A stretch of DNA of 64,000 nucleotides from a phage, in the NCBI GenBank assembly GCA_031520405.1, contig GCA_031520405.1_4842.1; one strand, written 5' to 3'. A program made the translations under genes and the position numbers. The notes under the pieces were generated by a model. That model worked only from the letters and a program-made list of their open reading frames with translations. It was not told the DNA's origin and did no database searches. Of the stretch, positions 36,860 to 41,390 are shown piece by piece. Numbering within the stretch: position 1 is the first letter of the stretch; every line of letters starts with the position of its first letter.

Positions 36860-37549
36860 ATGAAACGTTTAATCATCGGGGTTGTGCTGGCTGGTCTGGC
36901 ACTTCCTGCCACCGCCAAGCTGAATCCCACAGGTGAAAAACTGTGGTCTGATCTTTCCTACTGTGCTGGGTTCTCCCAAGCCGTCGCTATAGACAAAACT
37001 GGTTCCATAGAGAACTTTGCTGAACTCTGGGCCACAGGTAATGTCACAGATGCCGTTGTAAACGCTGGTATTGAGTTTAATCGATATAAGCAAGGCGCGT
37101 TCAACCTGAAAGGATATATGAACGACAAAGAATTTAACCGAGGAGGTATGGAGGCTGGCGATCTCATCATGACTGGTCGTATGGGCACACAAGGACGAAT
37201 GACCGTAAGACAGTGCCGTTCTCTTCCTTCTCCAGCATTACAAAAAGGTGTGCAGGTTGGCCGACGTCAGCTGGATCTCATCAATGATGGCAACCAATGC
37301 ATCAAGGTGTTTGAATATAGTGCCGACCAAGAATCAGATCGACGTTTGAAAAAGGAATGGCGGACTCGCGCCCTTGGCCTGAGAGCATGGCTAGTGGAAA
37401 ATGATCATTATTATGAAGACCGTGTTCAGAATGGTTTGAAAGATCTTTCCACTAATTTGTCTGTCAATCTAGACGACCCAAGGCTTTCGCGTGAACTCAA
37501 GCAAACAAGAATTGACTGTGATAATATGATGAAGGAGAACGAAAGATGA
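36860..37549 (+). CDS. secreted protein (signal peptide)
   Basis: MKRLIIGVVLAGLALPATA|K signal peptide with AxA cleavage site; AAGGAG RBS. Confidence 0.5.
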   Translation: MKRLIIGVVLAGLALPATAKLNPTGEKLWSDLSYCAGFSQAVAIDKTGSIENFAELWATGNVTDAVVNAGIEFNRYKQGAFNLKGYMNDKEFNRGGMEAGDLIMTGRMGTQGRMTVRQCRSLPSPALQKGVQVGRRQLDLINDGNQCIKVFEYSADQESDRRLKKEWRTRALGLRAWLVENDHYYEDRVQNGLKDLSTNLSVNLDDPRLSRELKQTRIDCDNMMKENER

Positions 37550-39433: not shown

Positions 39434-39721
39434 ATGTCCGGCGTATGGTGTGATGTATTGTTGGTAAGATTTTCAAACGGGATGGATAACCAGATTATTT
39501 CATTCTTTTATCCTGTTCCCTTTTCTTCTATGGGTCTGACTGTCAAGCGCGTTCTTGATATAGAAGAAAAACTCAACGCCATGCCGTATATGGCGCGACC
39601 ACATGTTCTGGGTTGTGAACTGTTAAACGAAATGATGATTGACGAGAACCTTGTTGAAACAATTATCACGCGTGAACAGATGAAAACCATACTGTCTCAG
39701 GGAGAACCCCATGTCGAATAA
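39434..39721 (+). CDS. hypothetical protein
   Basis: ATG with GGAGG RBS. Confidence 0.45.
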   Translation: MSGVWCDVLLVRFSNGMDNQIISFFYPVPFSSMGLTVKRVLDIEEKLNAMPYMARPHVLGCELLNEMMIDENLVETIITREQMKTILSQGEPHVE

Positions 39722-40031
39722 ACCGTTTGAACTTAAATTTCGCGTTTGGCATATTCCCCAGGTTCCTGGGATCGCTTTTCATGTTGAGGTTCCAACATTT
39801 GAAGAAGCGCAACGTCTGAAGAATACTCTGGCCGATTACGACCTGTTTCAGTATAACAATAACATCAAGCCGGATTATTGTAATGCTTCCGGCGTTCAAA
39901 TATACCAACATGATCTGACTGAAGAAGATCTAAATGATATGGGACTGGATGATCGTTGGGTTGATATCGAAGATATTGACGAACTCAACGATTATTTTGA
40001 TCATCTGCGTAGCACAGGGTGGGAAATATGA
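39711..40031 (+). CDS. hypothetical protein
   Basis: ORF with GGGAGAA RBS, overlapping neighbours. Confidence 0.45.
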   Translation: MSNKPFELKFRVWHIPQVPGIAFHVEVPTFEEAQRLKNTLADYDLFQYNNNIKPDYCNASGVQIYQHDLTEEDLNDMGLDDRWVDIEDIDELNDYFDHLRSTGWEI

Positions 40032-40237
40032 TCGGGTTAATCCGTTATCTGTTCATATTCGTAATAACAACATTCATTTTATTTTTCTTTTTCAAATACT
40101 TGAAAGAGACTAAAATCTACCGGAGTAAACGTTGGCGCAAACGGGTGAGAGTAACTTTCCTACTGCTGATTTCTTCGGTTACAATAACTGCACTCACGTT
40201 GGGTGCTTATATTTACATTTTTGAAGGAGTACATTGA
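40028..40237 (+). CDS. small membrane protein with two predicted TM helices
   Basis: two long hydrophobic stretches separated by RSKRWRKRVR basic loop; overlaps start of downstream lipoprotein gene. Confidence 0.45.
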   Translation: MIGLIRYLFIFVITTFILFFFFKYLKETKIYRSKRWRKRVRVTFLLLISSVTITALTLGAYIYIFEGVH

Positions 40238-41028
40238 TGTTCAAGAAACTGGTATTTGGCGCAATTATGGTCCTAGCAACAAGCCTTCTTTCAGGCTGCG
40301 GCGGTGTTATCGATGAAGGAAACGTCGGTGTTCGAACCCAATGGGGTGAAGTGGACATGAACCCTGTAACCGCAGGTATCTACACCAGTTTCGTTTCAAG
40401 TGTAGATGTCTATACGACTAAAGAAGCCGTCGTGAGTCTGACGAAAATGACGCCAAAGGCCAAAGACAACCTGACCTTGGAAGATCTGGATGTGGACGTT
40501 TATTACACACCGAACGTCGCGAAGGTTCCTTGGTTCCATACCAAATTTGCAGGTCAGAGCGCTGAACTCGGTGACGGCACGATAGCGGTGGGATTCAACC
40601 TGGTTAAAACCGCCGCAGCATCCTCAACGATGGACGCCGTTTCCTCTTTGGATTCTATGACAATTCACACCCAACGGGCTGAGTTAGAAAAGATGATCAA
40701 GGAACGCACCCAGCAGCAATTAGAAACAGCTGCGCCTGGCATGTTCACAATCACACGCGTGTTGGTCAAAAAGGCGCTGACAGATCCTTCGATTGAGCAA
40801 TCTATCCGTGATAATGTCATGGCCGACAAACGTTTGGATACAGCAAGAAAGAACGTTGAAATTCGCGACCAAGAAGCCAAGGCGAATCAGAAACTGACGA
40901 CATCTCTGACACCTGAATATTTACAACACGAATATAACATGGTGTTGCAATCTTGCGCCAACAGCGGGAAATGTACTCTGATTGTTGATGGTTCAGGCTC
41001 AAGTAAAATGCTAAACGTCGGCAAATAA
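40237..41028 (+). CDS. SPFH/band-7 domain lipoprotein
   Basis: lipobox LLSGC after hydrophobic leader; VGVRTQWGEV and PKAKDNLTLEDLDVDVYY match the SPFH core; GAAGGAG RBS. Confidence 0.55.
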   Translation: MFKKLVFGAIMVLATSLLSGCGGVIDEGNVGVRTQWGEVDMNPVTAGIYTSFVSSVDVYTTKEAVVSLTKMTPKAKDNLTLEDLDVDVYYTPNVAKVPWFHTKFAGQSAELGDGTIAVGFNLVKTAAASSTMDAVSSLDSMTIHTQRAELEKMIKERTQQQLETAAPGMFTITRVLVKKALTDPSIEQSIRDNVMADKRLDTARKNVEIRDQEAKANQKLTTSLTPEYLQHEYNMVLQSCANSGKCTLIVDGSGSSKMLNVGK

Positions 41029-41111
41029 ACGCTTTATTCAATAATATTTGTTAGGTAAGCTGTAGTCCTCTTGTAGTGAAACATTGTAAACAACTAACTG
41101 GAGTAATCCGA

Positions 41112-41390
41112 ATGAACCGTACTGATTTTATTGCTCACATCGCCCAGACTCAGGGTATGACCAAAGGCGAAGCTGAGAAAATCGTTGCATCTTTTATCAA
41201 TGGCGTGAAAACTGCAGTCGCGGCTGGCCAATCTGTCCAATTCGTAGGCTTCGGCGCGTTCGAAGTTAAACATCAGGAAGCGCGCACTGGCCGCAACCCG
41301 CTGAACGGACAACAGATCCAGATCGAAGCGAAAAATGTAGTTAAATTCAAAGTCGGTGAAGGTCTGAAAGCTGCTGCCAACGGCCAGTAA
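41112..41390 (+). CDS. HU/IHF-like DNA-binding protein
   Basis: MNRTDFIAHIA...VQFVGFGAFEVKHQEARTGRNPLNGQQIQI matches bacterial HU ([21 protein letters not shown]). Confidence 0.8.
   Translation: MNRTDFIAHIAQTQGMTKGEAEKIVASFINGVKTAVAAGQSVQFVGFGAFEVKHQEARTGRNPLNGQQIQIEAKNVVKFKVGEGLKAAANGQ

Follow-up and report, generated by a model that had tools for sequence, protein, structure and literature searches.

A Phage-Specific Gene Pair Encoding a Small Two-Transmembrane Protein and a Predicted SPFH Lipoprotein in a Kuttervirus Genome

We have investigated a two-gene cassette in a 64,000-nucleotide stretch of phage DNA (GenBank assembly GCA_031520405.1, contig GCA_031520405.1_4842.1), the whole of which is referred to here as the window and which nucleotide matches identify as a Kuttervirus (Ackermannviridae; Vi01/CBA120-like). 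The cassette encodes a 69-residue protein with two transmembrane (TM) segments and, from an overlapping gene, a predicted 263-residue lipoprotein carrying an SPFH (Band 7) domain. The pair is a phage-specific cassette, as a two-TM partner precedes the SPFH gene in 30 of 32 non-redundant lipoprotein-type phage loci and in none of 79 bacterial chromosomal loci. It is also accessory and dispensable, since phages bearing deletions in it have been isolated and propagated. Our preferred reading, to which we give somewhat less than an even chance, is that it represents a conserved, phage-specific accessory cassette acting on the host cell envelope.

Results

The SPFH gene begins at ATG 40237 and ends with a stop codon at 41026-41028. 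Its product starts with the segment MFKKLVFGAIMVLATSLLSG, immediately followed by C20, which can be read as MFKK, LVFGAIMVLATSL and LSG ahead of the cysteine. The segment comprises a KK n-region, a hydrophobic core and a lipobox, L17-S18-G19-C20, conforming to the pattern [LVI][ASTVI][GAS]C, in agreement with the lipobox reported in the initial annotation. The lipobox and its cysteine are kept in most of 46 aligned homologues and likewise in the phage loci. The protein is thus a predicted bacterial lipoprotein, a putative substrate of Lgt, LspA and Lnt, and PHROGs assigns it to phrog_200, 'lipoprotein'.

Membership of the SPFH/Band 7 superfamily is observed both in the sequence profile and in the fold and coiled-coil architecture. 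Pfam Band_7 (PF01145) matches residues 24-209 with an E value of 1.2e-12 and 48.7 bits against a cut-off of 23.6. The alignment-based AlphaFold2 (AF2) model has a predicted local distance difference test score (pLDDT) of 88.6 overall and of 90-98 for the strands and helices of the core (residues 21-182), the first SPFH strand following Cys20 with zero linker residues. The core is followed by a 40-residue helix (residues 184-223), a second helix (residues 226-242) and short strands (residues 247-263). Full-length Foldseek matches in the PDB, covering 230-290 columns with a probability of 1.00, include prohibitin (8rrh), erlin (9vvj), HflK/C (9cz2 and 7vhq), stomatin (9oh9) and QmcA (8z5g), with E values from 4e-13 to 7e-9 and a best value of 3.7e-13, while flotillin and the major vault protein are matched more weakly. 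The SPFH-type core and the coiled-coil tail initially proposed for this protein are therefore borne out by profile, model and structural comparison.

Sequence relationships are more restricted. No PDB chain was matched by the single SPFH sequence or by a 46-sequence profile, and no NCBIfam model, those for HflK and HflC included, matched near any cut-off. Among 1.84 billion representatives the 46-sequence profile retrieved 127 clusters (50% identity) at E≤1e-30 and 2,387 at E≤0.001. The lack of PDB and NCBIfam sequence matches combined with the few clusters places the protein in a small, divergent SPFH subfamily. Among 58 database homologues all full-length proteins carry PF01145, and one truncated protein has no Pfam entry. 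The gene is under purifying selection, with ratios of nonsynonymous to synonymous substitution (dN/dS) of 0.06-0.11.

A pair of cysteines, Cys240 and Cys246 (C-x5-C), is located close to the C-terminus. Of 29 SPFH proteins from partner-bearing phage loci, 12 have a corresponding C-x(4-7)-C motif, as against 0 of 79 bacterial proteins. The two residues may be joined by a disulfide in the periplasm, close to the predicted oligomer cap, and the limitation of the motif to a subclade of the phages is in keeping with an oxidising periplasmic environment.

The small gene extends from ATG 40028 to TGA 40235-40237. Two hydrophobic segments are present in its product, with Kyte-Doolittle 19-mer peaks of 2.4 and 2.0, arranged as TM1 (approximately residues 4-22), a basic loop (residues 23-41) with a net charge of +9, TM2 (approximately residues 42-63) and the tail FEGVH. 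AF2 models the protein as helix-loop-helix (H2-27 and H34-68) with a pLDDT of 77. The two hydrophobic helices described initially are thus recovered by both approaches, and the extent then given for the pair, 40028-41028, is exact. By the positive-inside rule the loop is predicted to be cytoplasmic and both tips to face the periplasm, exposing approximately 3-6 residues per tip. In comparison with relatives whose protein is 67-75% identical, the small gene shows pN of 0.16-0.21, pS of 0.64-0.75 and dN/dS of 0.05-0.17, TM1 and the basic loop being the best-conserved parts of the protein among close relatives. The small gene is real and under purifying selection.

The only PHROG matches of the 69-residue protein are phrog_11680 (2.2e-46) and, weakly, phrog_23919, function being unassigned in both, and no Pfam, NCBIfam or PADLOC family was detected above threshold. 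PADLOC defence models gave no match at E≤1 for any of the three proteins searched. Several identities were considered and rejected. An NfeD protein was rejected as PF01957 did not match even at E≤1 and there is no room for an OB-fold, because the two TM helices and the 19-residue loop use up all 69 residues. A class II holin or pinholin was rejected on the absence of any holin family match in Pfam or PHROGs, the tail FEGVH and neighbours that are not lysis genes. T4 Imm was rejected on the PHROG and Pfam results given above. A two-component spanin was rejected for the pair as a whole, the hairpin having no periplasmic coiled coil and the lipoprotein being a 263-residue SPFH protein.

The stop codon of the small gene and the ATG of the SPFH gene share one base (TGATG), an overlap that had been indicated in the initial annotation and is read directly from the DNA, and the Shine-Dalgarno sequence of the SPFH gene, AAGGAG, lies inside the small gene. 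A program-made list of open reading frames (ORFs) places the first start of the SPFH gene at TTG 40234; ATG 40237 fits better as the probable true start, matching the Shine-Dalgarno spacing and the homologues. The start positions of both genes agree with gene calls in relatives, in which the abutting or overlapping junction recurs. At the level of sequence, this junction shows a pair of genes organised for co-transcription and translational coupling.

A hairpin with a 7-bp, GC-containing stem followed by a T-rich stretch was observed at 40190-40206 on the plus strand, within the 3'-terminal part of the small gene and 17 nt ahead of the SPFH-gene Shine-Dalgarno. It is probably a chance occurrence, because terminator-like matches in the region (15 against a shuffled expectation of 8.9) barely exceed expectation. 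Consensus promoter and terminator scans in general were not clearly beyond shuffled expectation.

The distribution of the pair was investigated by a family-profile scan of viral contigs, which yielded 47 loci. Besides Kutterviruses and Erwinia phage Bue1, these represent a group of ∼110-kb phages and numerous smaller contigs. In the 30 partner-bearing loci, a two-TM ORF of 49-69 residues ends no more than about 30 nt before the SPFH start or overlaps it, and the partner is retained down to ∼26-31% identity of the SPFH protein. In one further phage locus a two-TM ORF is found ∼200 nt upstream of the SPFH gene. A sequence search for remote partners returned only 3 close matches, and distant partners are recognisable by position and architecture only. 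The plan in common includes a basic residue ahead of TM1, a TM2 rich in small residues and a tail of 2-10 residues, often beginning with Asp or Glu, while the loop is net-positive in all 24 of 24 positional homologues (mean +3.2).

The bacterial set comprised 80 loci with 35-44% identity from Burkholderiales, Rhodocyclales, Steroidobacteraceae and others. The sole partner-bearing locus of this set, from Massilia sp. TN1-12, was counted as phage: it lies on a contig of 112,962 bp, its SPFH protein and that of a 111,592-bp viral contig share 91% identity, and it is probably a phage or phage-plasmid genome inside a bacterial assembly. The two-TM ORF was absent from all of the remaining 79 chromosomal loci. 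Approximately 28 of the bacterial homologues have plausible lipoboxes and the remaining ones have an N-terminal TM helix. The difference between phage and bacterial loci is reflected in Fisher p values of 4e-25 overall and 8e-15 against bacterial lipoproteins only, calculated on loci that are phylogenetically non-independent. Apart from the partner, no neighbour is conserved in either the bacterial or the phage loci. Because the ∼28 bacterial lipobox homologues have no partner, partner presence follows phage origin and not anchor type. The same observation led us to drop the idea, based on the co-occurrence of lipobox and partner in phage loci, that the hairpin substitutes for the TM anchor of the non-lipoprotein homologues.

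In uncultured phages of ∼107-114 kb the cassette adjoins a gene for a DnaQ-like 3'-5' exonuclease, and in some ∼110-kb phages it also lies near RtcB-like and RNA ligase-like genes, these identities being assigned by eye from translations.

Natural deletions affecting the cassette were observed in Kutterviruses. In Salmonella phage STP07 (positions 2450-2701 of the extracted locus) a deletion has left codons 1-17 of the small gene fused to SPFH codons 198-263, a single event that removes both genes. In BRM 13314, in which the local gene layout matches that of STP07, and in the Kuttervirus Liang dang 541, only the same C-terminal stretch of the SPFH gene is left, and in phage bering the SPFH gene is split into two pieces.

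The features of the cassette and its surroundings are collected in Table 1. Over bases 39700-41100 the window shares 99.9% identity with Salmonella phages vB_SenAc-pSC20 and Se_EM1, and 176 phage records match this interval at 80% identity or more, nearly all of them Kutterviruses of Salmonella and E. coli O157. The cassette forms the end of a densely packed run of plus-strand genes. Genes before it include those for an RNA polymerase ADP-ribosylase-like protein, two signal-peptide proteins, a DUF7425 protein and a gp17-like protein, and it is followed by genes for an HU-like protein (named 'transcription factor 1', TF1, in one phage record), a helicase, RNase H, a late sigma factor and SbcCD-like proteins. 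The neighbourhood is thus of early/middle type rather than a lysis cassette. That the ADP-ribosylase-like and DUF7425 genes belong to one plus-strand block with the cassette supports a setting of early/middle host takeover.

Table 1. Coordinates of the cassette, its parts and neighbouring genes. Positions refer to the window unless a locus is named.
Feature	Position	Strand	Basis or match
Small partner gene, 69 residues	40028..40237	+	ORF, hydrophobicity, AF2, phrog_11680, dN/dS, charge pattern
Coupling junction	40223..40239	+	Read from sequence; Shine-Dalgarno AAGGAG 40223-40228, TGA 40235-40237, ATG 40237-40239
Predicted lipoprotein signal peptide (residues 1-19) and lipobox L17-S18-G19-C20	40237..40296 (lipobox 40285-40296)	+	Sequence
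SPFH (Band 7) core, residues 21-183	40297..40785	+	Pfam Band_7, AF2, Foldseek
C-terminal oligomerisation-type region	40786..41028	+	AF2, full-length alignment to cage-forming SPFH chains
Cys240/Cys246 pair (C-x5-C)	40954-40956 and 40972-40974	+	Sequence
RNA polymerase ADP-ribosylase-like gene	35456-35962	+	phrog_832, 1e-15
229-residue protein, cleavable-looking signal peptide MKRLIIGVVLAGLALPATA	36860-37549	+	phrog_4260 (function unassigned)
106-residue protein, N-terminal hydrophobic/signal segment	37546-37866	+	phrog_3843 'Rz-like spanin', 3e-58
DUF7425 protein	39434-39721	+	8e-52
gp17-like gene (context only, outside the unit)	39711-40031	+	Pfam GP17 'superinfection exclusion gene product 17', 1e-49
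HU-like DNA-binding protein	41118-41390	+	Pfam Bac_DNA_binding, 2.8e-28; directly downstream of the pair
gp17-like then LysM gene, downstream of the pair	L129 5044-5705
LysM-domain gene replacing the gp17-like gene	L004 3487-3792

The stop codon of the gene for the 229-residue exported protein overlaps the start of the gene for the next exported protein, and these products together with the SPFH pair constitute a run of envelope-directed products within one gene block. The second of the two, which bears a spanin annotation in phage KE28 too, is not accompanied by an overlapping plus-strand o-spanin ORF of at least 40 residues in the ORF list and has no lysis-gene context; its 'Rz-like spanin' label looks doubtful because of these two observations.

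The stop codon of the gp17-like gene overlaps the start of the small gene (ATGA, 40028-40031), and this gene was considered as a third component of the cassette. It was ruled out as its position shifts and a LysM gene substitutes for it in other Kutterviruses. In three metagenomic loci (L129-L131; SPFH protein 77-78% identical) the gp17-like and LysM genes are found downstream of the pair, and in five other Kuttervirus loci (L004-L008) a LysM gene fills the slot upstream of it. The abutting or overlapping junction of the pair is retained in the metagenomic loci while the gp17 and LysM genes relocate, and the slot beside the pair looks like a small hotspot for variable accessory genes.

Discussion

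The cassette described here combines a predicted SPFH lipoprotein with a small two-TM protein. According to the reading that we prefer, the SPFH protein would be exported, lipidated at Cys20 and assembled into an oligomeric ring or dome at a membrane surface that faces the periplasm, most likely that of the inner membrane. The hairpin, either a transmembrane component of this ring or its client, would be placed beneath or inside it, and ring and hairpin could together create an insulated membrane patch in the infected cell. Location of the lipoprotein at the inner membrane is favoured, albeit with a confidence that falls short of even, while the outer membrane appears perhaps half as probable. 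The inner membrane is favoured because the folded domain directly adjoins the lipid anchor and Lol extracts lipoproteins lacking a linker only poorly, because the sole candidate conserved partner is an inner-membrane protein and because those members of the subfamily that are held by a TM helix can reside only in the inner membrane. Lipoproteins from which the linker was deleted have been found to be re-routed to this membrane (El Rayes et al.).

With regard to role, our guess is envelope-level protection, that is, superinfection exclusion or the maintenance of membrane integrity until programmed lysis, rather than a core replication or lysis function. This guess stems from the accessory status of the cassette, its early-region context and the analogy to envelope-acting accessory proteins of other phages, and places envelope protection ahead of interference with FtsH and HflK/C, lysis timing and a virion role.

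Several observations weigh against this interpretation. The partners have a mean column identity of 28% across loci and no invariant column. The Fisher p values overstate the association, as the loci are related and were found with patterns derived from the same family. The ∼28 bacterial lipoprotein homologues are partnerless, from which it follows that the SPFH protein needs no hairpin to function. Long linkers are present in only about half of E. coli outer-membrane lipoproteins, making the zero linker weak evidence for retention. None of the computed results specifically indicates superinfection exclusion. Finally, residue +2 of the lipoprotein is Gly, and under the enterobacterial Lol-avoidance (Asp+2) rule Gly at this position directs a lipoprotein to the outer membrane.

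The last point is the basis of a model distributed over two membranes, which we consider doubtful but the most serious of the alternatives. Here Lol would sort the lipoprotein to the outer membrane, the SPFH ring would form on its inner leaflet, where it might shield or confine a component of the outer membrane or change the contacts of this membrane with peptidoglycan or its vesiculation, and the hairpin in the inner membrane would act separately or merely help biogenesis. The protein has Gly at +2 and Asp+2 is missing in nearly all family members, which under the textbook sorting rule predicts outer-membrane targeting, the bacterial lipoprotein-type homologues function without an inner-membrane partner, and the superinfection-excluding phage lipoproteins T5 Llp and Cor act at the outer membrane. 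Against this stand the zero linker residues, given that linker deletion leads to inner-membrane retention, and the TM-anchored members of the subfamily, which are necessarily inner-membrane proteins. Moreover, strict coupling to an inner-membrane protein over ∼30 divergent phage loci is hard to explain if the two products never come into contact.

Manipulation of host protease function, raised in the initial annotation, would require the SPFH ring to mimic or invade the host HflK/C cage, with the hairpin as inhibitor or decoy substrate, such that FtsH-dependent turnover (LpxC, sigma-32, membrane-protein quality control) is reprogrammed. The predicted topology, with a periplasmic SPFH domain, is that of HflK/C, the structural matches include HflK/C-FtsH complexes (E values of 4e-12 to 2e-8), and the best-conserved TM1 of the partner and its basic cytoplasmic loop lie on the side of the FtsH protease. 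Nevertheless, no sequence relation to HflK or HflC is detected in NCBIfam or, with the 46-sequence profile, in the PDB, identity in the structural alignments is just 14-17%, making co-assembly unlikely, and prohibitin, erlin and stomatin are at least as close as HflK/C. As there is also no protease or FtsH-related gene among conserved neighbours and no computed result that favours FtsH, we regard this explanation as improbable. Marginally less probable again is a function in lysis timing, in which a holin- or antiholin-like hairpin, or the true holin, would be sequestered by the SPFH ring and lysis thereby delayed. The two TM segments and length of 55-70 residues correspond to a class II holin, small residues (G/A/S/T) are abundant in the TM2 of many homologues and a nearby upstream gene matches the PHROG labelled 'Rz-like spanin'. 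The absence of a Pfam or PHROGs holin match and of a charged C-terminal tail argues otherwise, as do the neighbours, which in the phage lineages examined include no endolysin or holin but replication or early genes, the viability of the deletion phages and the occurrence of the bacterial SPFH homologues as ordinary chromosomal genes. A role in the virion or in entry, with the lipoprotein as a minor particle component aiding adsorption or DNA entry, is very improbable. The SPFH protein has been detected at a low count in particle mass spectrometry of phage Sajous1 (infected-cell or virion preparation), SPFH proteins are detected by mass spectrometry in jumbo-phage preparations and a role of this type has been speculated for an N4-like phage (PMC13239085). 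The Sajous1 count of 3 is however very low and consistent with membrane debris, the Sec/lipoprotein signal takes the protein into the periplasm whereas virions are assembled in the cytoplasm, and the gene is dispensable and located among early/middle genes.

Annotation of the gene as SPFH or lipoprotein is not new. The 2011 PhiSH19 genome paper lists it as 'SPFH domain/Band 7 family' and the RefSeq product name is 'lipoprotein'. Giant viruses and T4-like, N4-like and jumbo phages are on record as carrying SPFH genes, whose function in phages is still described as 'poorly understood' or 'unclear' in papers as late as 2026. Our literature searches found no tested function of a phage SPFH protein and no Kuttervirus transcriptome. 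New within the searched literature are the obligate-looking, phage-restricted two-TM partner, its status as neither NfeD, holin, spanin nor Imm, and the natural double-knockout alleles. A bare domain label is thereby replaced by a defined unit, an SPFH lipoprotein with an obligate-looking, phage-specific two-TM partner.

The significance of this unit lies in part in the SPFH cages of HflK/C, prohibitin, stomatin, erlin and flotillin, which have recently been solved but whose contents and purpose are debated. The phage unit is small (332 residues in total) and dispensable, with natural knock-out alleles of the STP07 type, and thus provides a tractable system for the effect of an SPFH ring on a membrane, for the sorting of linker-less lipoproteins and for Kuttervirus exclusion of competing phages or resistance to envelope-based defences. 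Kutterviruses are widely used in biocontrol cocktails against Salmonella and E. coli O157. A more far-reaching proposal, which we consider unlikely as a whole, is that phages have repeatedly kept a minimal SPFH machine of their own making, a lipid-anchored periplasmic cage that would need its phage-only partner for placement at the inner membrane and as client, and that would fence off a membrane patch against incoming DNA or membrane-attacking effectors in superinfection exclusion or counter-defence. If true, no SPFH cage would have been assigned a defined function in a virus before, and retention of a lipoprotein that depends on a partner would be seen here for the first time. Should the pair turn out to have no phenotype, it would be an ordinary accessory gene pair.

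Comparison with known systems reveals partial similarities. T4 Imm and Sp, T5 Llp and P22 SieA are small, non-essential membrane proteins or lipoproteins encoded by early genes of lytic phages and acting on the envelope. There is no sequence or family relation between these proteins and the phage pair, none of them has an SPFH domain and an exclusion role for the pair is putative. Rz/Rz1 spanins share the gene order, in which a lipoprotein gene comes after, and overlaps, a gene for an inner-membrane protein. However, the small protein described here has no periplasmic coiled coil, the lipoprotein is a 244-residue folded SPFH protein rather than a short proline-rich o-spanin, and the pair is situated outside any lysis cassette.

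Resemblance to SPFH systems is closer. E. coli HflK/HflC form a periplasmic SPFH cage around FtsH, and the phage protein resembles them in its periplasm-facing SPFH domain, N-terminal membrane fixing, long coiled-coil helix and C-terminal cap, with a strong structural match. It differs in being predicted to be lipid-anchored rather than held by a TM helix, in being encoded by one gene rather than a hetero-pair and in being shorter (263 residues), ∼15% identical and undetected by PDB sequence or profile search. In the SPFH-NfeD operons (QmcA-YbbJ, FloA/FloT) an SPFH gene is likewise coupled to a small multi-TM gene, and QmcA (8z5g) is matched with an E value of 7e-9. The phage partner has no OB-fold, the phage SPFH domain is predicted to be periplasmic instead of cytoplasmic and the pairing is confined to phages. 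The initial annotation had noted that bacterial SPFH proteins often have small membrane partners. Conserved gene order in divergent phages strongly supports a dedicated partner, whereas its kinship with the bacterial arrangement does not hold, the partner not being NfeD and the bacterial members of the subfamily being partnerless.

These bacterial members, TM-anchored or lipoproteins, are the remaining comparison. They differ from the phage protein in having no partner, no conserved neighbours and no C-terminal Cys pair, but share with it 35-44% full-length identity, the same G-x-[IV]-[ED]-x-G-N-V-G-V-R-T start and the same C-terminal motif. Thus, because bacterial members of the same subfamily are without a partner, the pairing is a phage invention and not an inherited bacterial operon.

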